Translations under genes and position numbers: made by a program | Origin: a virus | Lineage: Duplodnaviria > Caudoviricetes | Direction: 5' to 3' (one strand) | Length of the DNA: 52,410 bases | IMG/VR virus record: IMGVR_UViG_3300048852_000035 | Location: 1-52,410 of that record | Shown: one piece after another, positions 30,291-50,700 of the stretch | Position numbering within the stretch: the stretch's first letter is position 1 | Layout of the letters: every line of letters begins with the position of its first letter | Notes under the pieces: generated by a model | What the model was told of the DNA's origin: nothing | Database searches by the model: none | The model's input: only the letters and a program-made list of their open reading frames with translations

Positions 30291-30298
30291 ACGGCCTC

Positions 30299-31951
30299 CT
30301 ATGCCGCTAGAGAATATTCGGGGTCGTCCCATGGGCTGTAGGCGCTTGCCGCACCCTCATAGGTGCCGGCCATTGCCGTCGCCATCGCCAGGGCGACAGC
30401 GCCGTCGATGCGACCGCGAGACTTCTGCTTGTCGAGTTTTCGGTTCCCGCTCGGATCCTGGCGCACCGTGGCATTCATCATGCACATCGTCAGAACTGGA
30501 TGGGCGCCGTGCACCAGCCGCTTGTTGAGTAGAATGCTCTCTAGGTCGCGCAGTGCCGGCGACATGGACGCGAAGCCCTGCCCGAACGGCTCAAATACCG
30601 CGGCGTCACCATCAAGCTGCTCGTCGGTAAAGCCGACCTTCTGCAGCCAGGGCTTCAAGTGCCGCCAGTTGTATCGGTCGAATGCAATCTTCCTGATGTC
30701 CATTCGGCCGAACAGTTCATGCAGGTGGTAGGCAACGAACTCGTAATCGACAGTCGGGCCAGGCGTTGCCTCCAGATAGCCTTGATCGCGCCAGATGTCG
30801 TATGGCACGCGATCGGCTTTCGCTTTCTCGCGCAGGCTATCCCCCGGCAACCAGAACGTCGGCTTCACATGCCAAATGGTCGAGCCGTCATCTTCCTTGG
30901 GCGCCATAAGCACGAGTGAGGTAAGGTCGGACACCTCTGAAAGGTCGAGCCCACCAAACACAGGTAGACCGTCAAAAGCCTCATCAATCGGAGCATCGCA
31001 CGCCCTCCAAACAGCCGGCGCCACGAACGGCGCCGAAGCATCAATGCGCTGATTGAGGAACAGCCAGCGGAAACTGGCCTCCTTCGTCGGCATGCGTTGA
31101 GCCAGAAGTGAAAAGTCCTCGACGTCCTTAGTGGACCTGAAAATGCCAAGCGCCGGATTTGCTGCTGCCCATGCCGTGCGGTCATCCAACTCGCACTCGG
31201 CCGGCGCAGTGTAGATATGGCTGACGATGCGCGGATCCTTCGACGTCTCTGCGTCGTCAATCCAGCGCGAAAATAGATCGTTGTCGGTCGCCGCCTGCGT
31301 CGATATCGCAAACAACATCGCGCGGCCTTCGTAGGCACCCTGCGAGGTCTCGATCGCCTCGACGAAGTCGTCGGTCGGCCCTTTGATCTGCCCCACCTCG
31401 TCGAGGATGGCCAGAATAGGCGACCCGCCGTGCGAACTCTTGGCCTCGGCTGAACTAGCGTAGTACTCGACATTGAGGGCTAGGCCGATAATGGTCTTGG
31501 CCGACGGGACAACACGAGCGAGCTTTGCTAGCTTCGGCGACATGTAGATCATTTTCGAGGCGTAGTTGAACACCTCGGCAGCCTGCTTGCGGCTTCTGGC
31601 GCCAGATACGATGCGACCGTTAGGATACGCTTCCGGCCCGACGATGTGGGCAAGCAAGAGGCAGGCAATGGTCGCAGTCTTGGAATTCTTACGCGCGATC
31701 GACAAGTATGCGCGAGACGTGCCTGCCGGGTTGTCGTAGACAGACAGGATGAAGGCTTCTTGAAACGGCACAAGCCTGATTGGCTGGCCGATTAGTGTCC
31801 CTTCTGGGACAACTAGATAGTCTTCTATGAATCGGCATACTTTCTCGCCGCGGCTTAGCAGCTTCGTCGGAAGCTTACGCCAGTCCCTGAACTTCGGAAT
31901 ATGGCCGCACTGTATTGCCGCCCTCGTAGTTTCTGGCAGCCTTACTGGCAT
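30299..31951 (-). CDS. terL: Terminase large subunit
   Basis: ARKNSKT Walker A, ILDE Walker B, GGLDLS, RIDGAVA. Confidence 0.95.
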   Translation of the reverse strand: MPVRLPETTRAAIQCGHIPKFRDWRKLPTKLLSRGEKVCRFIEDYLVVPEGTLIGQPIRLVPFQEAFILSVYDNPAGTSRAYLSIARKNSKTATIACLLLAHIVGPEAYPNGRIVSGARSRKQAAEVFNYASKMIYMSPKLAKLARVVPSAKTIIGLALNVEYYASSAEAKSSHGGSPILAILDEVGQIKGPTDDFVEAIETSQGAYEGRAMLFAISTQAATDNDLFSRWIDDAETSKDPRIVSHIYTAPAECELDDRTAWAAANPALGIFRSTKDVEDFSLLAQRMPTKEASFRWLFLNQRIDASAPFVAPAVWRACDAPIDEAFDGLPVFGGLDLSEVSDLTSLVLMAPKEDDGSTIWHVKPTFWLPGDSLREKAKADRVPYDIWRDQGYLEATPGPTVDYEFVAYHLHELFGRMDIRKIAFDRYNWRHLKPWLQKVGFTDEQLDGDAAVFEPFGQGFASMSPALRDLESILLNKRLVHGAHPVLTMCMMNATVRQDPSGNRKLDKQKSRGRIDGAVALAMATAMAGTYEGAASAYSPWDDPEYSLAA

Positions 31952-35497: not shown

Positions 35498-37816
35498 CTA
35501 TGTCCGTGGGGTTCCGGTCGAGAAATTCCCGAGCCCGATCGCGAACGTACCGCCCGGGACATCCAGCCACTTTGCGGTCTTTTCGCCTCGCGCCGTCGCA
35601 CGTACGATCTCGCCACGTTCAAGGGCTTGGCCGGCGAGCGCGTCGAGTTTGCCCTTGGCGAGCCCACGCAGTTCCTCTGGAAGCCGCTCGCGCATTTCGT
35701 AGAGCCCGCTGGCGCCCGTCTTCGTGAACGGTGATCCGGCAGCAGCCGCGGCCTCAACAGCGATGACCAGCGCTGCCCGCAGATCGTCTTGCGGCGGGGC
35801 AGATGCGCCTAGCCCAGCAGACCTGTCGACCAACAAGCCGTGCTCATTTCGGACGTAGGTCGAGACCACCCGCCGGGCCGCACCGTTCGCCTTAACGACG
35901 CCGCCGAGGACGACCTTCGCCGGCTGGAAATCGGTGCCTAGATCCTTGCAAACACGCTTCGCCCTCGCCTCCTCGGCGGGCCACATGGCGTATGCAAGGC
36001 GGAGTCCGTCAACGAGTGCGGTGCTGCCGCGAATGGCGTCGCGGGCATCTCCAAGCGTCTCGATAGGCTTGGCGACCTTGCGCATGTGGTGGGCTACCAG
36101 CGTCGTGGCGCCGGTCTCGGTCGCCAAGCGCGACAGCGACGTGCACACGAACTGTCCCGCTGCCGGATCTTCGTTCAACGGCAGGTGCGCAAAACTCGCC
36201 AACGGGTCGAAGGTGATGAGACGTAGATCTGAAATGGACGCGAGCTCATCTCGGATCCGCATGAAGTCGTCTGTTTCGACGAGACCCTTCTTTTTGTCTT
36301 CCCGCCAGAACGCTCTAGCGCCCCCTGCGGATGGAAGGGGAACAACGATCATCCGTTGACCGGCTTTGCTAAAGCGAAACCCCTTGTCGTCGAGCGCAGC
36401 GATGCGCCGATGCACTTCGTTCGCATCGTCTTCCGACGTGATCATCACTGACGTTCCATCGACAACGACCTTTCCGCCGAAGATCGGCGCGGCTAATGTG
36501 CCCTGACCAAAAGCAACCCGTCGATGAAGCTCCAGTAAGGCGAACGACTTTCCAGTGTCACCCATCGCCGACACCATGCCAGGGATGCCGAGCGGGATCA
36601 CGCCGTCGACCAAATATTTGACTGCCGGCGCCTCGCCGACGAATCGGCTCACAGGCCAGTCGAAGATCGAAAATGCCCGCGGTTCGGCTGGGACGGCGCT
36701 GCTGTCGCTTGCTTGCTTCGGCAACGTCGCTGATTTCGTAGCAGCCGTTGCCGCGATTCTCATGGCCCTTTCGTGTGCCTCCTGAGGCGAGATCCAGTTT
36801 CCACGCTCGCCGCCACGGTGCTTCGTTGCAATCGCAGACAAATCTGCGCCGCCGTCGCGGGCCAGCTGCGCGACCGTGCTCAAGGTGACACCTTTACCCG
36901 CTGTGAACCCTTTCCACCGCGCGGCCACATCGCCTTTTCTGTATTTGGCGCCGCGAGCGCTCCATGCGTCGGCGATGGCCAGCCCATTGCTCCCGAGTGC
37001 GCCATGAACTGCCATTAGGACGTTGACCCAGTCTTGGTAGCCGATATCCGGATCGATGAAGGAAAGAAGTTCCTCGACTTCGGCGGCCTCTGCGGGCGCG
37101 TTGTCATTTGCATGCGAAGGGATGTAGTCCTGCCGCGGCGCGCGCCTTGGCGTGCGTATGCGCTCCACAAGCCACGCAGGCGCGTCTGCAATGGCAGCAA
37201 TGAAGTCGGATGCAGTATGATCTTCCAGGAACTCGTAGAACGTGCCGTCTGGCAGCGTGCTGCCCGCGGCAATGACGTATCCGCCTGTTGCTCTCACGTC
37301 GATGTCTGCTGGAAGGCTGCCCGTTGAGTTGGTCATGCCGTCGACATGGCGGAATAGGAAGTGCAGCCCCCCTGTGGCAGTCCGGACGACGACGGTAGGC
37401 GTCAGCGCCCCGTGCTCGGCCTCCATGGATGCCAGGTTCGCGTCCCCGGCCTTGCCCTCTTTGACGTCAACGTCAAGTGCGAAAAAGCCTGTTCTCTCGC
37501 CAGTCGGAATGCCGATGAGGGCGTCTGGCCAGTCCGACCACCACCGCCGGACAATATGTTCTCTCGTGCTTGCTCCGTACAAGCCGTCGCTGGTGAGCGG
37601 ACTCTTGGGGCCGTAGACCCGACCCGTATGAGGGTCGGTTTCCTCGCTGACGCGGCAAGGGAAAATCGGGATGCCGGCCGCGATGTACTCGAGCGCAACG
37701 GAAAGGTTGTTCGCGATGATTGGAGTGTCTGAGTTAGGCTGGACGGCGGATGCGGTTGTCGGCAAGCTGGCCTCCCAAAAGTGCGTTCGATGCTGCTTTG
37801 GTGATTTTCTCGGCAA
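35498..37816 (-). CDS. Bifunctional primase/polymerase + PriCT-2 + AAA_25 (RepA-like) helicase
   Basis: IFPC, IGIPTG, ALDVD, TATGGLHFLF, YQDWVNVLMA, GDTGKS, ITFDP, VAHHMRK, IRGSTA. Confidence 0.92.
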   Translation of the reverse strand: MPRKSPKQHRTHFWEASLPTTASAVQPNSDTPIIANNLSVALEYIAAGIPIFPCRVSEETDPHTGRVYGPKSPLTSDGLYGASTREHIVRRWWSDWPDALIGIPTGERTGFFALDVDVKEGKAGDANLASMEAEHGALTPTVVVRTATGGLHFLFRHVDGMTNSTGSLPADIDVRATGGYVIAAGSTLPDGTFYEFLEDHTASDFIAAIADAPAWLVERIRTPRRAPRQDYIPSHANDNAPAEAAEVEELLSFIDPDIGYQDWVNVLMAVHGALGSNGLAIADAWSARGAKYRKGDVAARWKGFTAGKGVTLSTVAQLARDGGADLSAIATKHRGGERGNWISPQEAHERAMRIAATAATKSATLPKQASDSSAVPAEPRAFSIFDWPVSRFVGEAPAVKYLVDGVIPLGIPGMVSAMGDTGKSFALLELHRRVAFGQGTLAAPIFGGKVVVDGTSVMITSEDDANEVHRRIAALDDKGFRFSKAGQRMIVVPLPSAGGARAFWREDKKKGLVETDDFMRIRDELASISDLRLITFDPLASFAHLPLNEDPAAGQFVCTSLSRLATETGATTLVAHHMRKVAKPIETLGDARDAIRGSTALVDGLRLAYAMWPAEEARAKRVCKDLGTDFQPAKVVLGGVVKANGAARRVVSTYVRNEHGLLVDRSAGLGASAPPQDDLRAALVIAVEAAAAAGSPFTKTGASGLYEMRERLPEELRGLAKGKLDALAGQALERGEIVRATARGEKTAKWLDVPGGTFAIGLGNFSTGTPRT

Positions 37817-38546: not shown

Positions 38547-39062
38547 ATGAAAGAAGTAAAGAGAACGCGACTGGCGCAAATGATCATCAATGAACATATC
38601 CGAAGTGGCTTGACTGAGCGCGAACTGGCCACGCGCCACGGGTTTAGCCAGCAGGCGCTTCAGACATGGAAGAAGGGGGCGGTTCCGCGTCCAGTGATGT
38701 TTCCTGCTCTTGCCTCGTACCTGAATATATCGGTCGATCAGGTTGCCGAACTGGCGGAGGAGGCGAAGATTAGCTCAGGCAATACAAAGCTACCGGAACT
38801 CGGCGCTCCGGTGATGGGATCTGGCGCCGGAAACGCCATAAACATCGATAAATTCGCTAGCGGCTACGCAAAGCCGGCAGTTGGCGGCACCTACGCCGTA
38901 CGGGTCGACGGAAAACTGATGTGGGTGAACCCGCGCCTCGCCCCGCGCGACGGCAACACGGTGCTTCTGCGAACTGGATCCTCGGGTCGCCTCTCAACGT
39001 GGCCTTGTTCACTGCAGCAAGGCGAAGAGGCTCATGTCGTAACACTGGCTGAGTTGGTCTGA
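38547..39062 (+). CDS. CI-like repressor (Xre HTH + degenerate S24-like domain)
   Basis: GLTERELATRHGFSQQALQTWKKG..PRP; TYAVRVDG-KLMWVNP...PRDGNTVL. Confidence 0.8.
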   Translation: MKEVKRTRLAQMIINEHIRSGLTERELATRHGFSQQALQTWKKGAVPRPVMFPALASYLNISVDQVAELAEEAKISSGNTKLPELGAPVMGSGAGNAINIDKFASGYAKPAVGGTYAVRVDGKLMWVNPRLAPRDGNTVLLRTGSSGRLSTWPCSLQQGEEAHVVTLAELV

Positions 39063-39118: not shown

Positions 39119-39292
39119 ATGACAAAGAATGCCGTCCAGGCACTACCCTGCAATGACCATCGGCAGGACATTTCCAGCGCTCACTCAGCATTCCTGGCTT
39201 TCGTCAGAGCCTTGGCCGTGAGGCAGGCGCGCATTGACGCCATGGTCGTGTCGGCAGCCAACGATAACGACCCCTCTAGGGCAGTGGCGTGA
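39119..39292 (+). CDS. 57-aa protein (not in ORF track) heading the peptidase-integrase operon
   Basis: AGGAGG RBS; MTKNAVQ...FLAFVRALAVRQAR...AANDN; GTGA overlap with next gene. Confidence 0.7.
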   Translation: MTKNAVQALPCNDHRQDISSAHSAFLAFVRALAVRQARIDAMVVSAANDNDPSRAVA

Positions 39293-39963
39293 TGCGCGAA
39301 ACGATCCGCATGTGCCCACCTGCGTCTGATCATATCTGGGAACACGTTGCACGGCACGAGGCCGCCCATGCTGTCGCCTATATCCTAGCCACCATCGACA
39401 TCTTCGGAAATCCGCACGGTGTCCACAGCTTACAGATCAGGCCCGATCGGACAAACATGGTTTTCGGTCGGAAGGGTCGGCCAGTCTTTTGTTGGGGTCT
39501 CTGCGAATCATCCGGCGTCTATAACGGTGTCGGCATGGGCATCGCTGAAGCGTACGTTCGGCAGAAGAGCGCGCTCATCCCCCAACGCATCAAAGCCGCC
39601 GAATGGGAAATCGTCTCCTGTATAGCTGGGCCGTTCGCGGATGTGTTTTCGCAAGGGTGCACGAGCTTGCATGCCATGCGATGGAACTCCCGATTGATGC
39701 GCGTCGGCACCAGTGACTTTGAGACAGCGGAAGCTGTATTCGCGGATCTGCGCATCCTTGCCGGAAGGCGGGCCGGATGGGTGAAGCTGCTTGAGCGTAC
39801 CCGCCGTCTGGTGATCGATCATTGGGACGCGATCGACGCCCTGGCTCATGCTCTTCTTAATAAGCATCGTCTTGAAGGTGATGAAGTCCTTGCCGTAATT
39901 GGACAGCATTCCCGAACCGTGACCGAAGCGGCACGAGCCGCCAACGACAATCGCCTACCATGA
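39289..39963 (+). CDS. HExxH zinc metallopeptidase (M41/FtsH-protease-domain-like, no ATPase)
   Basis: ARHEAAHAV, IAGPFA, TSDFE, HWDAIDALAHALL...LEGDEV. Confidence 0.8.
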   Translation: MMRETIRMCPPASDHIWEHVARHEAAHAVAYILATIDIFGNPHGVHSLQIRPDRTNMVFGRKGRPVFCWGLCESSGVYNGVGMGIAEAYVRQKSALIPQRIKAAEWEIVSCIAGPFADVFSQGCTSLHAMRWNSRLMRVGTSDFETAEAVFADLRILAGRRAGWVKLLERTRRLVIDHWDAIDALAHALLNKHRLEGDEVLAVIGQHSRTVTEAARAANDNRLP

Positions 39964-41561
39964 AGCGCGCCGTTATTTACGCCAGGTACTCCACCGACCT
40001 GCAAAACGATCAGTCAGTCGAAGACCAAATCCGACTTTGCAAGGCTCACGCTGAACGGCTGGGCCTTCAAGTCGTTCATGAATACTTCGATCGCGCAAAG
40101 TCCGGAGCGTCTATGTTCGGCCGACCTGGTTTGTCGAGCCTCATGCAGGCTGCCGAGCTAGGCTCATTCGACGTGCTCATCGCCGAGGCACCTGACCGCA
40201 TCTCCCGCGATATCGCCGACCTCGCCCACATCCACAAGACGCTTCGATTCCGCCAGGTCGAAATGAACTGCGTCAACGGCGGGCGCATGGATACCGTGCA
40301 AATTGGGATGTACGGCGTCGTCGGCCAGATGCAGAGGGAAGAGGGTGCGAAGAAGGTAAAGCGCGGCATGGTGGGTGTCGTGCGCTCTGGCCGCAATGCT
40401 GGCGGCAAGGCCTATGGCTACCGTCCTGTGCTTGGCAAGAAAGGTGAACTCGAAATCGTCGAGGAGGAAGCGACGACGGTGCGGAGAATATTCGAGCTCT
40501 ATGCCACCGGCATCTCCCCGCGCGCCATTGCCGCAACATTGAATGCTGATGGCATCCCTGCCCCGCGCGGGCTGCGCTGGAACGGCTCAACGATCAACGG
40601 CAACGGCCAGCGTGGCAACGGTATCCTGCGCAATCCGATCTACGCCGGCAGGCTGATCTGGAACCGCGTGCACATGGTCAAAGACCCGTCAACCGGCCGG
40701 CGCATCTCGCGCATCAATCCAGAAAGCGAATACGAAGAGATCGACGCGCCTCACCTTCGCATTGTCGACCAGTCGCTCTTCGACGCCGTACAGGTACGTA
40801 AAGAGGCGACGGGAGGCGCACGTGCCCGAGACGTGCCGAAGTCCAAGCGCTTGCTTTCCGGCCTGTTGCGCTGTGGCTGCTGTGGCGGCGGCATGGCGCT
40901 GATCGGCGTTGACCGCAGCGGCCCGCGGATTCAGTGCAGCACCTATCGGGAATCGCGAAGCTGCACAAACGGCGCTCGCTATTACATTGAGAAGCTCGAG
41001 CGCCAGGTGCTCGACAGCTTGCGCATCCAGTTTGCTGACACGGCCATCATCGACGAATACGTAAAGGCCTATCGCGAAGAACGTCGCCGAATTGAAGCCG
41101 AGGCACGCAGAAACCGGAGCACTTCCGAGAAATCTCTTGCCGACGCTAAGGCAGGTATCACGCGAATCGTCGAACGGATCGCCAAGGGCCTAATCGATGA
41201 CGAAGAGGCGGCATCAATGCTACAGCCACTGCGGCAAGAGCGAGAGCGGCTCGAGCGAGAGCTCGCAGCAAGTGAGGCGCCGTCGAACGTTATCGAGCTT
41301 CACCCGCAAGCCGTTAAGCGTTTCAAGGAAAACGTCGAGCATCTTGCCGACATCGTCGCAACAAAGACCGGCACGGTTGACGTTGGCGCGGCAAGCGCCT
41401 TCCGTCAGTTGGTGGCGGCAGTTATCGTTCACCCAAGGGAGAAAGGAGAGCCGTACACAATCCAAATAAAAGGATACTTGTCGAGCCTTATCGATTCCAC
41501 ACTGTCGGCTATTTCGTTGGTAGCGGAGGAGGGATTCGAACCCCCGACACAAGGATTATGA
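39960..41561 (+). CDS. Large serine recombinase (prophage integrase)
   Basis: YARYSTDLQ catalytic Ser, DRISR, ILRNPIYAG, Zn ribbon LLRCGCCG, coiled coil; ends inside the tRNA-derived repeat. Confidence 0.95.
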   Translation: MKRAVIYARYSTDLQNDQSVEDQIRLCKAHAERLGLQVVHEYFDRAKSGASMFGRPGLSSLMQAAELGSFDVLIAEAPDRISRDIADLAHIHKTLRFRQVEMNCVNGGRMDTVQIGMYGVVGQMQREEGAKKVKRGMVGVVRSGRNAGGKAYGYRPVLGKKGELEIVEEEATTVRRIFELYATGISPRAIAATLNADGIPAPRGLRWNGSTINGNGQRGNGILRNPIYAGRLIWNRVHMVKDPSTGRRISRINPESEYEEIDAPHLRIVDQSLFDAVQVRKEATGGARARDVPKSKRLLSGLLRCGCCGGGMALIGVDRSGPRIQCSTYRESRSCTNGARYYIEKLERQVLDSLRIQFADTAIIDEYVKAYREERRRIEAEARRNRSTSEKSLADAKAGITRIVERIAKGLIDDEEAASMLQPLRQERERLERELAASEAPSNVIELHPQAVKRFKENVEHLADIVATKTGTVDVGAASAFRQLVAAVIVHPREKGEPYTIQIKGYLSSLIDSTLSAISLVAEEGFEPPTQGL

Positions 41562-41565
41562 TTCC
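41516..41565. repeat. 50-bp direct repeat of the tRNA-Met 3' portion (satellite left att; includes the prophage right att core)
   Basis: GTTGGTAGCGGAGGAGGGATTCGAACCCCCGACACAAGGATTATGATTCC identical to 52283-52332. Confidence 0.97.
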
Positions 41566-41600
41566 CGTGTCAACCTTGTTTTTATTGGGCTTTTTGCATT

Positions 41601-41621
41601 TATGTCGCAGTTATGTCGCAA
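41601..41621. repeat. Integrase arm-type sites (TATGTCGCA x2)
   Basis: TATGTCGCAGTTATGTCGCAA; the same motif recurs at 52136-52156 and inverted at 52205-52223. Confidence 0.8.
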
Positions 41622-41647
41622 TGAGCCCTGCCTTGTAGCGCTAGCCT

Positions 41648-42886
41648 TTAGCCTAGAAGGGACCGCTCAGCAGCGGCTAGCTCGTCGGCATCGTCGCCGC
41701 GCGGGAAAAGGTGCCCGTAGGTGTCCAGCGTCATCTGAATAGAAGAGTGGCCCAGCCTTTCCTGCACCGACTTGACCGGCAGCTCTAGGCCGCCGTCAAC
41801 CTTTCGGTTGATGCACCACGAGGCAAAGAAGTGCCGGAGCGAGTGAAGGCCCGTGTACTTCGCCAGCATGACGGGTTTGCCGTTCTTGTCCAGTTCCTCT
41901 GAGGGAACCGAGACCCCTGCCCTGACACCAGCCGGGATCAGCGCCCGGTTGATGATGTTAGCGTGGCTTTCGATGTTGCCGTTCCCGTTGGGGAAGACGT
42001 AATGAAGCTCGCGAATGGGATTGCCGGCAGCATCGACCCGGCCGGTATCACGTCGCGGGCAACCAAGGCGCCATTCCCGGAGAGTGTTGATGACGAATGG
42101 CGGGATCGGAATTGTCCTCTCGCCCGCCTCCGTCTTCGGTCGCCCGATTTTGCCGTACTCGTCCGCTCGTTGGGTGACGCTAATCGAACGTCCCTCCAGA
42201 TCAACATCCTCCCAGCGCAGTCCGCGCAACTCCGAAGATCGCATACCGCTGAAGATCGCGGTTATCAGCAGCGGACGCCAGTGACCCATGCCGTCGAGCG
42301 CATTGATGATCGCGCGGACCTCGGCCGGCGCCGGGATATGCACGCCCACCTTGAGCTTGCCCTTGTGACGCTTCTCAGCCCGAGCCTCTTTTCCCTTTCG
42401 GCGCTGGCGCATGTCCCTGACTGGGTTCCGCGTTGCCAGCCCGCGTTCAACCGCATCGCCCAGGATACCGCCGAGTGACACGAGCACCTTCTTGATCATC
42501 GCGGCAGACCGGCCATTCTCCCTGAGCTTGTCCTCGAACTCCCGAATCAACGGCACCGACAGCTTGGAGACCAGCGTATCGCCGAGAAACTCCTCGATAT
42601 GAAATTTCAGATGACGCTTTCGCTGATCTATGGAGCTGCGCTCAAGGCCCTCCCCTTCGCCGGTTGCAATCCATAGCTCGGCGGCCTTCTTGACGGTAAC
42701 GCTATCGCGGTCGGCAACGTGAACGCCTTCCTTAACCTCCATATGTGCTTTGCTGGCGAAGGTGTCCGCGTCTTTCTTCTTCGCGAACGTCTTCTGGCGC
42801 TTTACCCCTTTGGTGTCGAAGTAAGTGACAATCCACGCCTCTTTCTGAACGCCGTGCCCAGTCCATGTGCGCTTACGTACCGACAT
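41648..42886 (-). CDS. Tyrosine integrase (satellite)
   Basis: SGMRSSE, RPKT, HSLRH, LGHSSIQMTLDTY catalytic residues. Confidence 0.95.
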   Translation of the reverse strand: MSVRKRTWTGHGVQKEAWIVTYFDTKGVKRQKTFAKKKDADTFASKAHMEVKEGVHVADRDSVTVKKAAELWIATGEGEGLERSSIDQRKRHLKFHIEEFLGDTLVSKLSVPLIREFEDKLRENGRSAAMIKKVLVSLGGILGDAVERGLATRNPVRDMRQRRKGKEARAEKRHKGKLKVGVHIPAPAEVRAIINALDGMGHWRPLLITAIFSGMRSSELRGLRWEDVDLEGRSISVTQRADEYGKIGRPKTEAGERTIPIPPFVINTLREWRLGCPRRDTGRVDAAGNPIRELHYVFPNGNGNIESHANIINRALIPAGVRAGVSVPSEELDKNGKPVMLAKYTGLHSLRHFFASWCINRKVDGGLELPVKSVQERLGHSSIQMTLDTYGHLFPRGDDADELAAAERSLLG

Positions 42887-42913
42887 GATCAGTTCCTCCC
42901 TCTCGGTTGCGCT

Positions 42914-43408
42914 TCATTCGTCGTCCTCGTCTAAACGGTCCTCCTCAATGGCCTGGAGCATGACCTGCACCATCTTGGCCCTCTCTTCCGCCTCTTTCCG
43001 GATTTCATCGGCTTCCTTGGTCTTGTCGGTCACCTTGCCGTCGGCCCGCAGGCGGTGCACCTGCTCCGTCAATGAGGTCACTTCAACCATGAGCGGCGTA
43101 AGCGCCTTGGTAAGATCGCCGAGAGCGAGAAGCGCGGCTTTTAAGGTCAGATCATGATCGAGTGGATCAGATGTAATCGCGTCGGTCCGGCTGAGAAGCT
43201 GCACGTACGCCTCTCGCAGCTGGTGATAGATGCCGTCGACCGGCGCATCGACCCGCAAGGCCAGTTGGGTTAACCGCCTCACGGCATCTGCCCGGGTTCC
43301 TACGCGGTTGTTGAAACGCCATGTGTCAATCGCTTCAAGCTCGCCGGGCGAGATCAGCATATGCAGGCGCTCGGTCTTCTTTGATTGGGCGGCGTCATCA
43401 TTCGTCAT
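42914..43408 (-). CDS. Ribbon-helix-helix-type regulator (probable satellite repressor)
   Basis: TERLHMLISPGELEAIDTWRFNNRVGTRADAVRRL. Confidence 0.75.
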   Translation of the reverse strand: MTNDDAAQSKKTERLHMLISPGELEAIDTWRFNNRVGTRADAVRRLTQLALRVDAPVDGIYHQLREAYVQLLSRTDAITSDPLDHDLTLKAALLALGDLTKALTPLMVEVTSLTEQVHRLRADGKVTDKTKEADEIRKEAEERAKMVQVMLQAIEEDRLDEDDE

Positions 43409-43441
43409 CTACGATCCCCTTTCTGTCCCTTCATGCACCTT

Positions 43442-43495
43442 ATGCACATATTGTTGTTGTGGGCAATCCGTGTCCGTCCTATGTTATATGTGCAT
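43442..43495. promoter_or_regulatory. Inverted-repeat operator between the divergent satellite regulators
   Basis: ATGCACATAT (43442-43451) / ATATGTGCAT (43486-43495). Confidence 0.65.
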
Positions 43496-43529
43496 GTGAC
43501 ACATTAACCGCATATAGAAGGGATCGAAG

Positions 43530-43736
43530 ATGACGCTCGACGAAGCACTTTCCCGCCCGACGCTTCCCGTCCCTGATGCAGGCCGCGTCTTCTATGGCCT
43601 GAGCCGGAACGGCAGCTATGAGGCGGCCAAGCGTGGCGACATTCCAACAATAAAAATCGGCCGCAAGATTATGGTGCCCGTTGCATTGATCGCAGACCGG
43701 CTAGGACTTCATCACAATCTAAGTGAGCAAAGTTGA
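43530..43736 (+). CDS. AlpA/excisionase-like DNA-binding protein
   Basis: GLSRNGSYEAAKRGDIPTIKIGRKIMVP. Confidence 0.85.
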   Translation: MTLDEALSRPTLPVPDAGRVFYGLSRNGSYEAAKRGDIPTIKIGRKIMVPVALIADRLGLHHNLSEQS

Positions 43737-43867
43737 TTGAGCCTGCCGCTGAAGTTTGCCGCGCGCCAGGCTCAGGCTCGATCACGATGGTGGGGGAAGT
43801 GAAAAGATAACCTGAGCTTTGGCTCGCGTCAATTTTGGCGGCGGTTTCCGCAAGGGAGATCGCACGA

Positions 43868-44395
43868 ATGACGAATTTCGCATCCTATCCCAATCTCGGC
43901 GGCTATCCTCGGCTGACGCAAAATCACTTGGATTGGCTTTGCGCGCAGGGCGTGTCGCTGTCGGCGTTGCGAGGTCCGCCGATGATCTTGCTCGCTGACG
44001 GGGTCCGGGCGGCTGATGGCTGCTTTGAGCACGATGCGGATGGTCAGCAATGGCTGGCTTTTCCTGAGCATGACGATGTCATCTACTGGCAGCCGCGATC
44101 CGGCGAGTTTGCGACATGGAACAATCGGCGCTTCGCGCTCGGAGAGGACGCGATTCACGCCGCAGCGACCTACTCGTTCGGCCACTGCCTTAACATCCTC
44201 GAAAGCCCGCTCGAATGGCTTCGGGCCAGTCGTGACGGGATCGTGATCGTCGATTGGGATCAAGCGTTCGACCGGCTCCGCGATGTCCAGCGCATCGCCG
44301 TCGTCGAAAGCCTTCTGAGTAAGTTGGAGCATCATTTACAGCCGCCGCGCCTACCGGAAATCTTCGTTTTGCCACGACGGGAGGCGGTGGCATGA
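43868..44395 (+). CDS. Hypothetical protein coupled to the helicase (possible degenerate primase-like fold)
   Basis: AGGGAG RBS; LESPLEWLRA..DGIVIVDW; ATGA overlap. Confidence 0.7.
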   Translation: MTNFASYPNLGGYPRLTQNHLDWLCAQGVSLSALRGPPMILLADGVRAADGCFEHDADGQQWLAFPEHDDVIYWQPRSGEFATWNNRRFALGEDAIHAAATYSFGHCLNILESPLEWLRASRDGIVIVDWDQAFDRLRDVQRIAVVESLLSKLEHHLQPPRLPEIFVLPRREAVA

Positions 44396-45528
44396 GCGGC
44401 GCCGCTTCCGCAATCGGAGACCCAATTCCCAAGCGGCAATACCGCCGCGCGCAAGAGCGTGCGAGGCGGAAATTTGCGCTCACCTTTCTTTCCGAGATCG
44501 TCGTCGACGATGCCGACCCGGAATTCTTGGTCGACGATCTGCTCCCGTTGCGCGGACTGGCGACGATCTATGGCCCACCCGGCTCGGCCAAGACATTCCT
44601 TGCCCTTGACCTTGCCCTTTCCGTTGCCGGCGGCCTGCCGTTCTTCGGCAAGCCGGTAAGCCAGGGCGGCGTTGTTTATATCGCCGCCGAGGCGGGTGAC
44701 GGGCTGAGAAAACGCGTCATCGCCGCCCGCGAAGATAAGGCCATACCGCCCGATATCGCGCCGTTCGCGATGATGGCATTGGCGCCCAATCTCGGCCCCA
44801 AGAGGAGCGAGGCCGCCCCGCTGATCGCCGACATGCAAGCGGAATGGCCCAGTGATGCCGGGCCGATCCGGCTCATCGTCATAGATACCTTGGCGCGCAC
44901 ACTGCGAGGCGACGAGAATTCCGCCGCCGACATGGGAGCCTTCGTCGCCAATGCCGCTGCCATCGCCGCCGCATTCAATTGCCTCGTGCTCGTCATTCAT
45001 CACAGCGGAAAGGATGCTGAGCGCGGGATGCGCGGATCGTCCAACCTAAACGGAGCGACCGATGCCGAATGGCAGATATCGAGCAAGGACGGCATCCGCA
45101 CGGTTTCTCTGCACAAGATGAAGGATGGAGAGCACGGCCTAGAGTGGTCCTTCCGGCTGGAAAAACGGCAGGTTTCGGGCAATTCCGGCAAGCGCCCCCG
45201 ATCCACGTGCGTCGTCGTTGCCGAAACCGAACCGAAACCTGTGGAGGGCAAGCCGAGGCGCGATCCGCCGAAGGGAGTGAGGAAGCTGGTTTGGGAGGCT
45301 GTCCTCGATGCGCTTGGCACCTATGGCGAGCTGATGCCGGTTTGCGAGGACTTGCCGCGCTGCAAGGGCGTGAACCGCAAGTATGTCCGGAAAAACGCTA
45401 TCTCGCGCGGCGTCGGCAACCCCGACAACCCGGATGGCCAACGCGCCCTGATCAGCAAGGAACTGGCCAATCTGAACGCCGATGGCTGGATCAAGCAATG
45501 GGAGGATTGGATATGGCTGCCGCACTGA
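44392..45528 (+). CDS. AAA_25 / RepA-family replicative helicase
   Basis: GPPGSAKT, YIAAE, IVIDTL, IHHSGKD, RGSS. Confidence 0.92.
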   Translation: MSGAASAIGDPIPKRQYRRAQERARRKFALTFLSEIVVDDADPEFLVDDLLPLRGLATIYGPPGSAKTFLALDLALSVAGGLPFFGKPVSQGGVVYIAAEAGDGLRKRVIAAREDKAIPPDIAPFAMMALAPNLGPKRSEAAPLIADMQAEWPSDAGPIRLIVIDTLARTLRGDENSAADMGAFVANAAAIAAAFNCLVLVIHHSGKDAERGMRGSSNLNGATDAEWQISSKDGIRTVSLHKMKDGEHGLEWSFRLEKRQVSGNSGKRPRSTCVVVAETEPKPVEGKPRRDPPKGVRKLVWEAVLDALGTYGELMPVCEDLPRCKGVNRKYVRKNAISRGVGNPDNPDGQRALISKELANLNADGWIKQWEDWIWLPH

Positions 45529-45690
45529 GCGAAACCCGCGAAACTTTGCTGAAACCTTCCCCGAAAGACGCGGGCGCAACGTCCCAGCCGCAGTACCACT
45601 CACCGAAACCTGGGGGGATGAAAACCTCCCCCCCTACGGGGGAGGTTTCACCCCGTTTCGGAGGTACGGAGGCGTTGCGGCGGTTTCGGG
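45529..45690. repeat. Iteron cluster, probable satellite origin
   Basis: GAAAC at 45531, 45540, 45551, 45605 and GTTTC at 45645, 45655, 45683 around the palindrome GAAAACCTCCCCC..GGGGGAGGTTTC (45620-45649). Confidence 0.7.
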
Positions 45691-45718
45691 GGGTTCAGGA
45701 AGAAGAGGAGAAAGGAAA

Positions 45719-46387
45719 GTGACCGACATGATGACCAAAGGTGAACGCGAGGACCTGCAACGCCTGATCCGACAACGTGAGAAGGTGCTGAAAAGCGCAG
45801 CCAAGCAGCGATCAACAGAACTGCTTGCCGACTTCGAAAACCAGATATCCGCGATGTACCAGTTCGACGACGACGAGGTTTGGGCAGCGGCCGAAAAGGC
45901 GGCAGCGGTAGAAGTTGAAAAGGCGCAACAGCGCGTGGCAGCCCGCTGCGCGGAACTCGGCATCCCCAAGCAATTCGCGCCCAGCCTCAATCTCTACTGG
46001 AGCGGACGCAGCTATCATAATGGCGTCAAGAAACGCCGTGATGAACTGCGCCTGGCGGCAAAAGCGCAGGTCGCCGCGCTGGAACAGAAGGCCGTTGTCG
46101 CTATCGAAACGGCATCCGTAGAGGCGCAAACGCAGGTCGCCGTCGCCGGCCTGACGAGTGAAGCAGCGCGCGCCTTCATGGCTAATCTCCCCGCCGTCGA
46201 TACCCTGATGCCGTCGCTGTCCTATCAAGAGATCGCGGGCGAAAGCGATACGCCGATAGTCGAGCAAATGCTGACGCCCAACGCCCTGCGGCAACGCCGA
46301 TTTCGGGAACGCCAAAAGGCGTTACGTAACGGGAGTGTAACACCTGAAAATGCTCAGGTTGATGATCTTCAGGAGGAAAAATCATGA
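45719..46387 (+). CDS. Helical hypothetical protein
   Basis: GAGGAGAAAGGA RBS; C-terminal NALRQRRFRERQK basic motif. Confidence 0.8.
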   Translation: MTDMMTKGEREDLQRLIRQREKVLKSAAKQRSTELLADFENQISAMYQFDDDEVWAAAEKAAAVEVEKAQQRVAARCAELGIPKQFAPSLNLYWSGRSYHNGVKKRRDELRLAAKAQVAALEQKAVVAIETASVEAQTQVAVAGLTSEAARAFMANLPAVDTLMPSLSYQEIAGESDTPIVEQMLTPNALRQRRFRERQKALRNGSVTPENAQVDDLQEEKS

Positions 46388-46647
46388 CCACCTTCAACGA
46401 GAGCCAGAACCGCATTCTCCTTGCCCTCGTCGAGCAGGCCGTCGAGGGAGCCCGTCGCAAAGGCAAGATGACCGAGGTAGACGCGCTGCTCGGCCTTCAA
46501 TTTTGCGTGGCGCTGAACAGCGAGGCGATAGTCGGCTCGCGACAGGCTGCAGCGTCATTGCGCGACATCGCTGACCAGATGGAACAACGCGGACTCGAGC
46601 CGCTGCGGCTCCCGAAGAAAAACATCGTGGCTGACGATGAGGCGTAA
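46384..46647 (+). CDS. Hypothetical protein
   Basis: AGGAGG RBS, ATGA overlap. Confidence 0.75.
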   Translation: MTTFNESQNRILLALVEQAVEGARRKGKMTEVDALLGLQFCVALNSEAIVGSRQAAASLRDIADQMEQRGLEPLRLPKKNIVADDEA

Positions 46648-46671
46648 CACCAGCGCGAAAGGAGGCCACCC

Positions 46672-46950
46672 ATGTCAAAGGAGCCAAAAATTTCATTGAC
46701 GGAAAAAGCGAAGCAAGTGGCGTGCGATGCGATCATCGAACGCGCCGTCGTGAAGATGGTCGTAGAGGCCGGCGCGCCGGTCTCGCTGGTGATCGACCGG
46801 CTGCTGACATATGCCGCCGGGCAGGCCGCGACATTGGAGGGATCAGCCGTCACGGCCGAGCATTTCCGGCGCTTCGCGGATCAGATCGAGAGCGGGCTGT
46901 TCTGGTCGATTACCGGTGAGGACAAGCCGAGCGGGGGGACGGCGAATTGA
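46672..46950 (+). CDS. Hypothetical protein
   Basis: AGGAGG RBS; 92 aa. Confidence 0.75.
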   Translation: MSKEPKISLTEKAKQVACDAIIERAVVKMVVEAGAPVSLVIDRLLTYAAGQAATLEGSAVTAEHFRRFADQIESGLFWSITGEDKPSGGTAN

Positions 46951-47123
46951 CCCCCACGGAAAACTTTCCTATCTTGTGGGTGGCTCGATTGTGCACGCGC
47001 CAGCGGCAGGACCGCGACGCAAAGCCGACGCGCCACTTCGATCAGCAGCGGCTGGCCCGCGCCCGAAGCAACCCAACGACGAGCGATTTGCGCTCGCGTG
47101 CTTTGACGCGCCCGAGGTGAGCC

Positions 47124-47801
47124 ATGAGCCATTTCTCGAAATTCGATCCGACCGCGATCCGACTCGCGCCAGCGCTCGACCTTGAGGTCAAGGCGGCCGG
47201 CGACGGGCTTATCGAAGGTTATGCGTCGACATTCGGGGGCAAGCCGGATCGTGCCGGCGATATCGTCGCCATGGGAGCCTTCGCCCGGACCCTCGCTGAG
47301 CATTCCCGCGAAGGCACGTCGCCGGCCATGTTGTGGAGCCATCAGATCGAGGCGCCAATCGGCAAGTGGACGGCGCTCCAAGAAGACCGTGACGGTCTGC
47401 ACGTCGCCGGCCGGATCAACCTCAAGACCACGCGCGGCCGGGAGGCGTTCGAGCATATTGCGGCCGGCGATGCCGGCGCTTTCAGCATCGGCTATTTGGT
47501 CCGCGAAGGCGGCAGGAAATATCTCGGCAACGGCGTTTTTTCCCTGACGGATGTCGACCTAGTCGAGATCAGCGTCGTCACCGTTCCCGCCAATCCACGC
47601 GCTCGGATCGCCGGCGTCAAAAGCCTTACCAACAAGGGCGAGCTTGTCGATCTTCTACATGATGCCGGCCTGGCAAAGGCCGCCGCAAAACAGATCGCCA
47701 ACGGCGGTTGGCCGGCGCTCTCCGGCGACGATACCCAGCAAAAAGCGGCGCGCCTCCTGGCCGCCATAGACGCCGCGACAGCGCGGTTAAGGAGCGAATG
47801 A
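47124..47801 (+). CDS. HK97-family prohead protease (satellite)
   Basis: EGYASTFG, MLWSH, PIGKW, FSIGY, EISVVTVPANP. Confidence 0.95.
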   Translation: MSHFSKFDPTAIRLAPALDLEVKAAGDGLIEGYASTFGGKPDRAGDIVAMGAFARTLAEHSREGTSPAMLWSHQIEAPIGKWTALQEDRDGLHVAGRINLKTTRGREAFEHIAAGDAGAFSIGYLVREGGRKYLGNGVFSLTDVDLVEISVVTVPANPRARIAGVKSLTNKGELVDLLHDAGLAKAAAKQIANGGWPALSGDDTQQKAARLLAAIDAATARLRSE

Positions 47802-47802
47802 C

Positions 47803-48999
47803 ATGACGTATTACGAGAAGCATTTGACCCGTTCCGCCGCCGCCCTCTTGGCCGCCGGTCAGCATCTCCGCCGCAAGGATGCCGGCGGCGCAGATGAAAT
47901 CTTTGAGCAGCTATCTCACAAGTTCGGGGAGCACGCGGCTACAGTCATGAAGAAGCTTGGCGAGGCTGACGTGAAAATGGCTGCGTTTGCCGAGCAGGTC
48001 GCGGAGATGGAGCAGCGGCACGCGCGCGGCGGTGGCGGCTTTCAGCCGGCGCAGCCCGACACGTGGGGTGAGCAGTTCACAAAGCATAAGGGTCTGGCGG
48101 CCTTCCGCGAGGAGCATAGCCGGCCCGGTCGCTTCCGCGTTGAAATGAAGGCCACCCTGACCAATGACCCTGCCTCCGGCGGCAGCCTGGGTGTCCCGAA
48201 GCGCGATCAGGTCAGCATGATGCCTCGCCGTCGCATGGCCGTGCGCGACCTCCTACCGGTCGTCAGCGTCTCGTCGAATGCCGTCGAATATCCTGCTCAG
48301 ACCGGACGGACGAACAACGCCGCACCGGTGGCCGAGGGCGCGGTCAAGCCCGAGTCGGCGCTGGCGTTTGAACTGCGGACGCTGCCTACGCAGGTGATCG
48401 CGCACTGGATTCCAGCCAGCCGACAGGTGCTTGAGGATGTGCCGCAACTGCGAGACATCATCGACGGTGAGCTTCGCTACGGCCTAGCCTTTGTCGAAGA
48501 GGGCCAACTTCTCTACGGTGACGGCAACGGCAGTAATCTCGACGGCATGGTGCCTAACGCCACGGCCTTTGCGGCGCCGTTCACGATCAGCAGTGCGACC
48601 ATGATCGATACGGTCGGCTTGGCGATCTTGCAGAATGCCTTGGCCGATTTCCCGGCGGACGGGATCGTCATGCATCCGTCGGACTGGATGCGGATACGCC
48701 TGTTGAAGGACGCGGACGGCAAATACATCCTCGGCGACCCGCAGGCGGTGATCACGCCCGCCTTGTTCGGATTGCCGGTTGTGGCTACGCAGGCGATGGC
48801 CGTCGACAAGTTCCTCGTCGGTAACTTTCAGGTGGCGGCGACGCTCTACGACCGCTGGGCGGCGCGGGTCGAGGTCAGCACCGAACACGCCGACTTCTTC
48901 GTCAGAAACCTCGTCGCAATCCTTGCTGAGGAAAGGATCGGCCTCGCCGTTAAGCAGCCGCTCGCTTTGACCTACGGCGATTTCGGCAACGTGACGTGA
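47803..48999 (+). CDS. Major capsid protein, HK97 gp5-like (satellite)
   Basis: VAEGAVKPES, IAHWIPASRQVLED, LLKDADGKYI, LFGLPVV, AILAEERIGLAV. Confidence 0.95.
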   Translation: MTYYEKHLTRSAAALLAAGQHLRRKDAGGADEIFEQLSHKFGEHAATVMKKLGEADVKMAAFAEQVAEMEQRHARGGGGFQPAQPDTWGEQFTKHKGLAAFREEHSRPGRFRVEMKATLTNDPASGGSLGVPKRDQVSMMPRRRMAVRDLLPVVSVSSNAVEYPAQTGRTNNAAPVAEGAVKPESALAFELRTLPTQVIAHWIPASRQVLEDVPQLRDIIDGELRYGLAFVEEGQLLYGDGNGSNLDGMVPNATAFAAPFTISSATMIDTVGLAILQNALADFPADGIVMHPSDWMRIRLLKDADGKYILGDPQAVITPALFGLPVVATQAMAVDKFLVGNFQVAATLYDRWAARVEVSTEHADFFVRNLVAILAEERIGLAVKQPLALTYGDFGNVT

Positions 49000-49592
49000 T
49001 TGCTACTTGAGCCATTTGAGCTACCGGAAACAGAGTCCATCGTGCTTCCCCTAGCTATTCCGCCCGCGAGGTAAAGCGTGATCATGGTCACAATCAGCAC
49101 AAGCATTACTGACTTGTAGAAAAGCTCGATCTTGCCGTCTGAATGCAGCTGTTTATCCTGACGAAATCTCTCGTGCCGGACGAGTAACCACGCCAGCCAG
49201 TTTACCGGCCATCTCGGCTTATATGGACTGACATCGCCGATAGCAGCACTCAATGACAACTCGGGTATGTCTGTGCTGTATTTGGTTTCGATCTTAATCG
49301 CGTGTTTGACGGACCCCGTAAGGAGTCGATGGTACCAGTAACGATCTATGAAGTAGAAAAGCCAAGTGGCGAAAAGCCCGAAGGCGGCTACGATGATGGC
49401 ATACTGAACCTTCATTCCGAGCAAATCGAGAGTGAGTTTTTTGTCAATTGTGAAGCCCATGGCCGCGAAGAAGGCCAATAGGATTGTTACAAACATCCCT
49501 CGAATTCGCATGCTTATTTCGTTGAAATGCCGCTGAACTTCAACAACGGACTTCCAAATCTCAATAATCTGATCTCGTTCTTCGTTTTGCAT
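48972..49592 (-). CDS. Three-TM membrane protein, partner of the HAD hydrolase
   Basis: Three hydrophobic segments; 5 bp downstream of the HAD gene. Confidence 0.8.
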   Translation of the reverse strand: MQNEERDQIIEIWKSVVEVQRHFNEISMRIRGMFVTILLAFFAAMGFTIDKKLTLDLLGMKVQYAIIVAAFGLFATWLFYFIDRYWYHRLLTGSVKHAIKIETKYSTDIPELSLSAAIGDVSPYKPRWPVNWLAWLLVRHERFRQDKQLHSDGKIELFYKSVMLVLIVTMITLYLAGGIARGSTMDSVSGSSNGSSSNHVTLPKSP

Positions 49593-49597
49593 TTTAT

Positions 49598-50482
49598 TTA
49601 TGCCCGCGCAGCAAAGTCGGCAAAGTCGAATAAATTCAGAATTTCTGAATACGTCTCTTCAAGCGTATACGTGGGATGAACGTGCTCGCGCTCCTTTATT
49701 CTCTGTTCCCGCTCAACCTCCTGCGGCGTCCAGTGCGTCACCTCTTGAAGAAGTTTATATTCCGGACGCTTATGCGCTTGCCCAAACTTGGCCCAAACGT
49801 CGTCAATGCCGCAATCAATTGCCATTGCAACGTCTTTCATCAGATTGTCGCCAACGTAGACGCAATCTGCCTTGCTGAGCCCGAGATTGCTAATGATCGT
49901 ATTCAGCACCACGGGGTCGGGTTTCTTCGAGCTGCGCGGCGTGAATTCTTGCTTCGTATATGTGAGCTCATATCGCTCGGCCGGGTACCTGCGGAAATCC
50001 TCTGGACCCAGACCTTCCGGCAATAGATGGTCCCGGGGGCAAAATACGAAATCGAGTACTCCATCTAAGCCTAATCGGCGGAGGCGATAGTTTGAATAGA
50101 ACGCCATCGATTCGGTGTAGCCAATAATCCTGGCCCCACGACCTTTGATCTTCAGCAGTGTCTCGGCCACAGTCGGGTAAAGTTTTAGATGCTCGCTGCG
50201 TTGCTCGCGGTAAATTTCAATCGCTCGAGCGAACACTTCGGTCGCCGGACGGCCGTCGAGAATGCGTTTCAGCGAAGGAAGTTCCTCGATCAAGAACGAA
50301 TACTCTGAGGTCCCGTGCGTTTGGTGTACTGCCGCAATTTCGGGGATAAGCGTCTCTCTGGATATGCCGCTGATCGCAGCGATCTCGTCCAGCATAGGAG
50401 AGAAACAATTTAACCAAAGCTCCACCCAGTCGAAGAGTGTGTTGTCCAAATCCGTGATCAGCGCGCGCTTTCTGGTTCGCAT
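49598..50482 (-). CDS. HAD-superfamily hydrolase
   Basis: Motif I DLDNT, motif II GYTES, motif III KPDP, motif IV GDNLMKD. Confidence 0.92.
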   Translation of the reverse strand: MRTRKRALITDLDNTLFDWVELWLNCFSPMLDEIAAISGISRETLIPEIAAVHQTHGTSEYSFLIEELPSLKRILDGRPATEVFARAIEIYREQRSEHLKLYPTVAETLLKIKGRGARIIGYTESMAFYSNYRLRRLGLDGVLDFVFCPRDHLLPEGLGPEDFRRYPAERYELTYTKQEFTPRSSKKPDPVVLNTIISNLGLSKADCVYVGDNLMKDVAMAIDCGIDDVWAKFGQAHKRPEYKLLQEVTHWTPQEVEREQRIKEREHVHPTYTLEETYSEILNLFDFADFAARA

Positions 50483-50604
50483 CCTACCCCTCAGTGTTCG
50501 GTCCGCCATTTGTCGATGCGCTTTGTAATGGAAACAGATCAAAAGTCCACGTCACGCGCGATAGAGTAACGGGGCGCCAGCGCACAAATTTGTACAAATG
50601 GTAC

Positions 50605-50700
50605 GCAGTGCGGGGGGGCGGCAAAATCTTGCCCTATCTATGCAGCGACGGACCCGCGCCGCCCTCACGCGGAGAATTTTTGGTTGGTTCCAAAAAACAG
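50605..50700 (+). other. cos-like packaging signal of the satellite
   Basis: G7 run (50612-50618), GGACCCGCG (50650-50658), then GAGAATTTTT just upstream of the TerS-like gene. Confidence 0.5.

Follow-up and report, generated by a model that had tools for sequence, protein, structure and literature searches.

The 52,410-base stretch of DNA analysed here (the window) is the complete length of IMG/VR virus record IMGVR_UViG_3300048852_000035, which has a completeness rating of 83%, and it carries a siphovirus-like prophage whose large serine integrase gene (int) appears to harbour the phage attachment site (attP) within its last codons. In the integrated state int reads antisense into transfer RNA (tRNA) sequence, which supplies its final codons and its stop, and the codons that would complete the gene on the excised circle lie at the far end of the prophage. 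We judge it probable, from the anatomy of the window and of its relatives, that recombination exchanges one integrase tail for the other and that the phage-encoded tail is under selection; that this tail plays a specific functional role is a more tentative proposal. A sequence-only reading of this DNA had put forward an integrase that rewrites its own C-terminus by recombination at an attP inside int; it described the anatomy correctly, and the relatives support it strongly.

By its domain content the product of 39960–41561 (+ strand; 533 amino acids in the integrated form) is a large serine recombinase, with a catalytic domain bearing the nucleophile serine, a recombinase domain and a zinc ribbon with coiled coil. 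Pfam identifies the trio Resolvase (PF00239, residues 4–145), Recombinase (PF07508, 168–282) and Zn_ribbon_recom (PF13408, 298–355), the PHROG integrase family phrog_95 matches residues 1–497, serine S11 is invariant among 35 and among 33 aligned relatives, and the fold matches the SPbeta, phiC31 and Bxb1 integrase structures (E-values from 4e-22 to 1e-15). The gene closes with ...SLVAEEGFEPPTQGL*: after ...SLVAE it reads EGFEPPTQGL antisense through tRNA-Met sequence to a TGA stop codon (41559–41561) that overlaps the complement of the CAT anticodon. At the far end of the prophage the frame from position 115, directly preceded by an in-frame TGA (112–114), reads LVAE and then 37 further codons (VRSGHYSRTEAIDFIDLGTWQEALIEAIQLYGLDRPK*) to a stop at 238–240. 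This phage-encoded tail (128–240 with its stop, + strand) is in frame with the repeated core sequence and would be joined to int only in the excised (attP) form, whose length would be 523 + 37 = 560 amino acids. The particulars of the earlier description agree with the sequence: the 533-residue frame crosses an exact match to the 13-bp core at 41517–41529, its end reads the tRNA T-arm antisense with the TGA opposite the anticodon loop, and the core at 115–127 continues in frame for the 37 codons that make up the 560-residue count.

Over the whole window the core (TTGGTAGCGGAGG) is present in three exact copies (115–127, 41517–41529 and 52284–52296), a number reached in none of 100 dinucleotide shuffles, for which the mean was 0.06. 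The order of elements is host flank (1–114), core, 41.4-kb prophage (128–41516), core plus tRNA fragment, a 10.7-kb island (41566–52283) and intact tRNA-Met, an arrangement in which two elements in tandem occupy one tRNA gene. The core of the left prophage end (attL; 115–127, + strand) consists of the last 11 nt of the tRNA 3′ end (the complement of ...TCCGCTACCAA) and the presumed crossover GG at 126–127. The intact tRNA-Met (anticodon CAT; 52285–52361, − strand) is called by ARAGORN and by Rfam (RF00005, 66.9 bits), and neither calls a tRNA at 41517–41590. What adjoins int there is, by its identity, a displaced 3′ fragment of this gene, 49 bp long (41517–41565, − strand) and an exact copy of tRNA positions 30–77, which supplies the B′ half-site of the host attachment site (attB), the codons EGFEPPTQGL and the TGA. 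The claim that int reads into a tRNA has to be qualified in this respect: the antisense tRNA-Met sequence is present, but only as a 49-bp 3′ fragment, the intact tRNA lying 10.7 kb away.

The island encodes a tyrosine integrase and is bounded by the 49-bp tRNA repeat, so that this second enzyme might be supposed to move the whole 52 kb, the match at 115–127 being no prophage end, or the match might be a chance repeat. Either version is extremely unlikely. Three exact core copies stand against 0.06 expected, the 49-bp repeat bounds 41566–52283 only, relatives possess the same int and ends without the tyrosine-integrase island, and dyad symmetry of the serine-integrase type is centred on the core. 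Moreover, in the contigs of isolate sequencing run X3 the island is present between its tRNA repeats; one contig joins flank-type sequence directly to position 41516, and none lies on int. The island therefore also occurs without the serine-integrase prophage. The runs were compared as assembled contigs, which break at the tRNA repeat and cannot show rare forms.

Attachment sites of large serine integrases are ~40–50 bp long and imperfectly palindromic, with a 2-bp crossover, and the zinc-ribbon motif is set 5 bp closer to the centre in attB than in attP. Eleven attP sites were scored for dyad symmetry, three of them natural and eight rebuilt computationally from the two ends of one element. 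The best dyad centre fell between G126 and G127, the final two bases of the 13-bp core, in all 11 sites, with 12–19 of 26 positions paired. We infer from this centre that the crossover most likely takes place at the 2-bp GG (126–127), and the remaining 11 bp of the core would then duplicate the tRNA 3′ end, so that the tRNA is left intact. The 13-bp core proposed previously is an exact repeat, but it is most likely not a 13-bp crossover, as the dyad symmetry centres on its last two bases. The complete attP would measure ~52 bp (about 41503–41529 joined to 128–153), all of it coding and wholly situated in the last int codons. Its P half-site together with the core (41503–41529, + strand; outer motif TGTCGGCTAT) lies within the int codons ...LSAISLVAE, which carry the 11-bp copy of the tRNA-Met 3′ end, and in the prophage forms the left half of the right-hand attachment site, attR. 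The P′ half-site (128–153, + strand) bears the outer inverted-repeat motif ATAGCCGAAC and coincides with tail codons 1–9. The outer arms TGTCGGCTAT (left) and ATAGCCGAAC (right) are those of the clade of the window; the clade of Rhizobium phage RR1-A and the Microcystis phage record Mae-JY30 has a different pair, a G-run and a C-run, in both arms. A CCGA motif is found at +20 to +23 in P′, the phage arm, and at +15 to +18 in B′, the tRNA arm, with the mirror TCGG at −23 to −20. This displacement agrees with the 5-bp change in zinc-ribbon register between attachment sites described, in the available part of the text, in a phiC31 preprint (10.1101/2025.05.02.651858), although it concerns a single motif and the host-flank arm has no such motif.

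The overlap of int with tRNA-Met recurs throughout the relatives of this integrase. We collected 69 related loci with identities of 25–95%, 52 of them on genome contigs and 17 on viral contigs, the closest from Ensifer sesbaniae (95%) and E. aridi (93%); their hosts, according to the record titles, include Rhizobiales, Rhodobacterales, Nitrosomonas, Verrucomicrobiales and Terriglobales. The int stop falls inside an ARAGORN-called antisense tRNA-Met(CAT) in the ..GFEPPT.. frame in 39 of the 69 loci and inside such a tRNA in another frame or position in five; in 11 the T-arm is read antisense but the locus stops short or only a tRNA fragment remains, as in the window, and the other 14 are partial or broken genes, contig ends and non-tRNA junctions. 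With 55 of 69 loci ending in tRNA-Met antisense (44 with a called tRNA plus 11), reading antisense into tRNA-Met is, on the comparison of these loci, a family-wide design. Other antisense frames occur in relatives P0001, P0011, P0029, P0039, P0043 and others, and in loci L006, L028 and L036, with ends such as ..GSGGGT*, ..GCGGRI* and ..GTRTPDTRIMIPLL*, which implies that the position of the crossover relative to codon phase differs between subfamilies. At L069 (4571–4983) the start of the tail (EEGSEPP) resembles tRNA antisense, after which the sequence departs from it as an open frame of 150 codons; this may represent a decayed fragment or a different junction.

The second half of the arrangement, a tail waiting in frame at the far end, is likewise shared. 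In-frame far-end tails are present in E. aridi, E. sesbaniae, Rhizobium aouanii, R. laguerreae, two Hansschlegelia genomes, one distant Hyphomicrobiales genome, provirus G012, G011 and L070. The joined form can be seen in the free Rhizobium phage RR1-A (44% identity), in which int lies contiguous in mid-genome with TGGTAGCGG at the aligned VAG codons followed by 16 codons, and in Mae-JY30, where TGGTAGCGG falls on the aligned VAE codons of an uninterrupted int. Nearer to the window, tail and int are contiguous in L059 and L070. The former belongs to an 86-kb provirus (G011) that comprises two different prophages in tandem at one tRNA-Met with int genes 69% identical, and the int of the inner phage runs in frame into the tail of its neighbour at this junction; the latter is a 6.6-kb metagenome fragment. 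In R. laguerreae (L076), with tandem serine-integrase prophages at one tRNA-Met, the tail likewise follows in frame on a different long open frame, and tandem occupation of tRNA-Met seems to recur. Record G012 (L063/L103) has a layout like that of the window, its int ending in a tRNA fragment that diverges past the anticodon loop, and extends 17 kb further. Integrases 93–95% identical to that of the window (E. aridi and E. sesbaniae) carry elements of otherwise unrelated content, for example one of 16.5 kb. This 16.5-kb E. aridi element (L147) shares with the window its int (93% identical) and, apart from that, only the flank, the core and the tail as far as window position 198, i.e. tail codon 24, where the homology stops. 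Since sharing is limited to int and the left end through codon 24, int, attP and the proximal tail appear to travel as a unit.

The proximal tail is conserved in a manner that depends on the reading frame. In all 10 close-clade tails the spacing VAE, 17 amino acids, (L/F)G(T/N/M)W is fixed and no stop codon occurs within the 34 codons that follow VAE; R6, R12, G22 and W24 are invariant in the 10-row alignment. Substitutions were counted according to Nei–Gojobori as proportions of synonymous (pS) and non-synonymous (pN) differences, from 10 related sequences in non-independent pairs over a short stretch. Codons 1–9 yield pS 0.27 and pN 0.28 without third-position excess, which indicates constraint at the level of the DNA, as would be expected of a binding site. 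Codons 10–24 give a pooled pS of 0.72 and pN of 0.38 (ratio 0.53), with variability of 0.39, 0.34 and 0.63 at positions 1, 2 and 3, against pN/pS of 1.09 and 1.21 in the two shifted frames; the pair L079/L082 differs by 7.5 synonymous versus 2.5 non-synonymous changes. These counts indicate that the proximal ~24–30 residues are translated in the int frame under moderate purifying selection. Conservation in homologues, run as a check on the original proposal, holds for this proximal part, which keeps its spacing and sequence and so argues for a function, but not for the total length, which varies, nor for the distal part. An antisense open reading frame (ORF) was considered as a cause of the tail conservation and rejected: in 9 close-clade tails plus the distant L089, the minus-strand frame 82–273 is open in only five of 10 regions, and the other five contain 1–3 stops.

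Selection in this frame could also be exerted on a separate small gene. An NTG triplet precedes GTA at attL (TTG in the window), from which lysogens might make a free 41-residue peptide that is itself selected, and TTG, ATG or GTG is found in this position in seven of eight attL ends (the window, L073–L076, L079 and L082), L100 having CTG. We consider such a gene very improbable, given that the start base comes from host DNA rather than from the phage, that inspection by eye of the variable host flank reveals no consistent ribosome-binding site or promoter, and that the tail is part of int in the contiguous forms.

Ala-Ala ends resemble ssrA-type degradation tags. An exhaustive search with the L059 protein returned 1950 cluster representatives at E < 1e-30, and the C-termini of the best 150 were examined. 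Of these 150, 122 are at least 500 amino acids long; 51 of the 122 end in tRNA antisense in several frames, and 71 end otherwise. Among these 71 non-tRNA tails, 21 end in AA and 36 in A, where composition predicts 1.4% and 11.7%, respectively (binomial 2e-22 and 1e-15); the actual proportion of Ala ends may be higher, since some tRNA tails in other frames, or broken genes, remain among the 71. A stricter set, with V[AG]x 10–44 residues from the end, contains 16 of 45 tails ending in AA and 28 of 45 ending in A, and the tail of Mae-JY30 ends in VIAA. Several distant tails read ..(S)(L/F)GR(W/F)R.AA, resembling the I(D/S)LGTW of the window clade, whose tails look like lengthened versions of them. 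From this likeness, the -AA tails of the relatives may be degradation tags. Their excess lends indirect support to the idea that the tails govern stability, though the tail of the window itself ends in RPK.

To place the swap relative to the folded enzyme, two AlphaFold2 models were built from the alignments of 35 and 33 relatives. The 576-residue L059 junction form (mean predicted local distance difference test, pLDDT, 79.5) is ordered to ~507, with residues 508–576 below 50 and containing one helix (540–555); the 533-residue integrated form of the window (mean pLDDT 81.0) is ordered to ~508, with long helices at 361–437 and residues 509–533 below 50. The crossover (VAE, 520–523) is located 10–12 residues beyond the last ordered element, and its position outside the folded body implies that the swap should leave catalysis and DNA binding intact. 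On these models the catalytic, recombinase, zinc-ribbon and coiled-coil parts should be the same in both forms, and both should recombine DNA. A docking prediction of body 1–510 against the tail alignment scored 0.28 relative to a mark of 0.32 and is not used as evidence either way.

The same anatomy can be read in a less eventful way, the tail swap being a harmless by-product of an attP that must include the tRNA end and by chance overlaps the 3′ end of int, and directionality coming from a separate factor alone. The swap is situated in an extension past the folded body in which the tail is modelled at pLDDT below 50, and the Pfam and PHROG profiles stop near residue 497, so that the swap removes no known domain. 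Tail length after VAE varies from 34 to 66 amino acids in the close clade and the distal parts are unrelated; the tails of distant relatives are short, 12–26 amino acids in most and 16–22 in the three taken from DNA. McMurdie et al. 2011 (PMC3146451), in the portion of the paper available to us, judged the ssrA-antisense part of a Dehalococcoides serine recombinase, DsiB, to be divergent and unlikely to be functional. Several of these points weigh against a selected tail swap in their own right, as do a few others: a pN/pS of ~0.5 amounts to only moderate constraint, drawn from 10 related sequences in non-independent pairs; the window tail ends ...GLDRPK and not in Ala, so that a degradation-tag end is absent here, and LAA ends occur in only two of the 10 close-clade tails (L070, ELAA; L079, LLAA); the only contiguous forms in the close clade are the L059/G011 hybrid and the L070 fragment, neither a proven free genome of the clade; two word-index searches for contiguous int-plus-tail proteins (with the L059 tail region, and with the window tail among longer proteins) gave no match to these short queries; and neither a circle junction nor a restored attB of the prophage was seen in assembled contigs, which cannot show rare forms. 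Against a mere by-product stand the frame-specific coding signature and fixed LGxW spacing in 10 of 10 tails, a frame that is open for at least 34 codons past VAE in every one of them, homology to the E. aridi element that runs exactly through tail codon 24, and the strong excess of -AA ends among relatives. We regard it as rather unlikely, and favour a tail swap in which the phage-encoded tail is maintained by selection.

The host side of the site is variable. The flank downstream of the tRNA gene (1–114) contains a repeat (1–106, ~105 bp) that is present in six of 23 genomes of the genus around E. sesbaniae and adjoins the 3′ side of several different tRNA genes in those genomes; in 10 of 14 BLAST rows of the repeat, a tRNA 3′ end (GGATTCGAACC-like T-arm, by eye) lies ~8–20 nt away. 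The repeat may be a terminator or a REP-like element. All 23 genomes possess the orthologous tRNA-Met locus, and the sequence abutting its 3′ end varies. Loci L129 and L137, in which a flank like that of the window abuts the intact orthologous tRNA-Met, are empty sites; sites L119, L123 and L127 are taken by a relative of the integrase, the tRNA there adjoining an open frame of 499 or more codons; and L125 and L131 look like decayed integrase copies. The island next to the intact tRNA-Met encodes, besides its tyrosine integrase (41648–42886, − strand), an AAA_25 protein of the primase/helicase type (44392–45528, + strand) and an HK97-type major capsid protein (47803–48999, + strand), as identified by Pfam. 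It has this capsid gene but no other structural genes among those scanned, and looks like a capsid-encoding phage satellite. Coverage by RNA run X9 is confined to the tRNA piece and to 151 nt of the gene for the tyrosine integrase, and says nothing on int expression.

The prophage itself is assigned to a siphovirus-like type by its Pfam matches, which include TerL (30299–31951), portal (29013–30332), capsid (27049–28341), tape measure (20792–23053) and Prim-Pol/helicase (35498–37816), all on the − strand. Upstream of int on the + strand lie a helix–turn–helix (HTH) regulator (38547–39062; HTH_3 E 4.5e-4, phrog_8 E 2e-6) and, downstream of it, a 224-residue ORF (39289–39963) whose stop overlaps the int start (ATGA). 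This ORF matches no Pfam or PHROG family; its HEAAH motif is metalloprotease-like. The layout is reminiscent of repressor/anti-repressor-protease/int operons, and the HTH regulator, the HEAAH ORF and int probably share one transcription unit. A directionality factor was sought with PHROG and Pfam in the ORFs close to the two ends, where the only matches were to HTH regulators and an HNH nuclease.

In the life cycle that we envisage, the circular genome would express the 560-residue form after infection, and attP would recombine with the tRNA-Met end through a 2-bp crossover at GG, the tRNA being rebuilt from the 11-bp copy. Integration would send the 37 codons 3′ of the crossover to the far end of the prophage, and int would gain 10 tRNA-coded residues together with a stop that is available from the anticodon loop of any CAT tRNA. 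A lysogen would make the 533-residue enzyme ending EGFEPPTQGL and the free or circular genome the 560-residue one. If int is transcribed with the HTH regulator and the HEAAH ORF, the short form may be made constantly in the lysogen, awaiting a directionality factor; excision would restore the long form. The phage tail could tune the enzyme of the free state, a control that integration would remove. Its most likely target would be abundance, which we favour because the tails of many relatives end like an ssrA-type -AA tag, followed by dealings with the directionality factor. A further and rather doubtful extension concerns the broad clade of phage and island serine integrases at tRNA 3′ ends, in which integration might act as a protein-level state switch: in many lineages a selected -AA tail would keep the free-state integrase short-lived and make lysogenisation dependent on host proteases, and the tRNA-antisense tail would be stable and poised for excision. 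In the Ensifer-type phage of the window the tail, extended beyond the old LGxW..AA end, might by now serve a different purpose, such as contacting the directionality factor.

Large serine integrases recombine attP with attB unaided and attL with attR only in the presence of a directionality factor. The integrases of phiC31, Bxb1, SPbeta and Listeria A118/LI share with that of the window the domain order and fold as well as short near-palindromic attachment sites with a 2-bp centre, and a separate directionality factor is expected here too. To our knowledge, these phages integrate into protein genes, and their attP sites are not part of the int reading frame. As stated in the part of the preprint available to us (10.1101/2025.05.02.651858), the phiC31 integrase contacts its directionality factor through its extreme C-terminus.

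The closest published parallel is DsiB: the Dehalococcoides gene dsiB always overlaps attL at ssrA, and McMurdie et al. 2011 (PMC3146451), so far as the text was available, suggested that the enzyme is perhaps fully functional only on the circle. As in the window, the 3′ end of a large serine recombinase gene covers the att repeat and runs on antisense into a tRNA-like RNA gene, with the stop outside the element. The Dehalococcoides case differs in that transfer-messenger RNA rather than tRNA-Met is the target and that the elements are islands, not phages, and encode a second, small recombinase (DsiA); the accessible portion of the paper contains no conserved far-end tail, selection test or degradation-tag pattern. 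The sequence-only reading had associated att-in-integrase switches with tyrosine integrases; they are indeed known there, as in Myxococcus phage Mx8, but not there alone, since the serine dsiB overlap was published in 2011 (PMC3146451, available to us in part). In Mx8 (IntP/IntX; Tojo 1996 and Magrini 1999, as cited in the available portions of PMC6070905 and PMC4383910) attP likewise lies inside int and integration makes a new 3′ end; the prophage enzyme is altered, not inactivated, and the arrangement has been called a molecular switch. As these excerpts have it, that enzyme differs in being a tyrosine recombinase with other chemistry and a long heterobivalent attP, whereas the altered form in the window is known from sequence alone. 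[quoted passage not shown] The split gene in BPs is the repressor and its integrase, according to the same pages, a tyrosine recombinase; in the window the serine integrase itself is split, and its tail has no Ala end.

According to the available part of the 2015 Islander paper (PMC4383910), tRNA genes were not among the known targets of serine integrases. The main text of Durrant 2022, as far as accessible, makes no mention of tRNA, and in a 2024 S. meliloti survey, in the portion at hand, all integrases at tRNA genes were of the tyrosine type apart from one ambiguous case. Our literature search, partly through partial texts, turned up nothing published on tRNA-Met as a target of serine integrases, nor on phage serine integrases that exchange their tails, though the supplementary tables of Durrant 2022, with their predictions of large serine recombinase (LSR) and att pairs, and the TIGER database could hold such sites.

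Contrary to the 2015 statement in the accessible section of PMC4383910, serine integrases do use tRNA genes. Finders that seek only tyrosine integrases at tRNA genes, or that trust annotated C-termini, will mis-map such elements. Some 50 bp of DNA would here carry three layered constraints, namely those of a protein, of its binding site and of a tRNA end, with attP coded within the very protein that binds it. Genome engineering relies heavily on serine integrases, and in the current view a separate factor alone decides in which direction they work. If our reading is correct, a family in which the int gene is rewritten at each recombination would add to this a built-in memory of the integration state, and the tail would offer a simple handle for tuning the level or the direction of the integrase.

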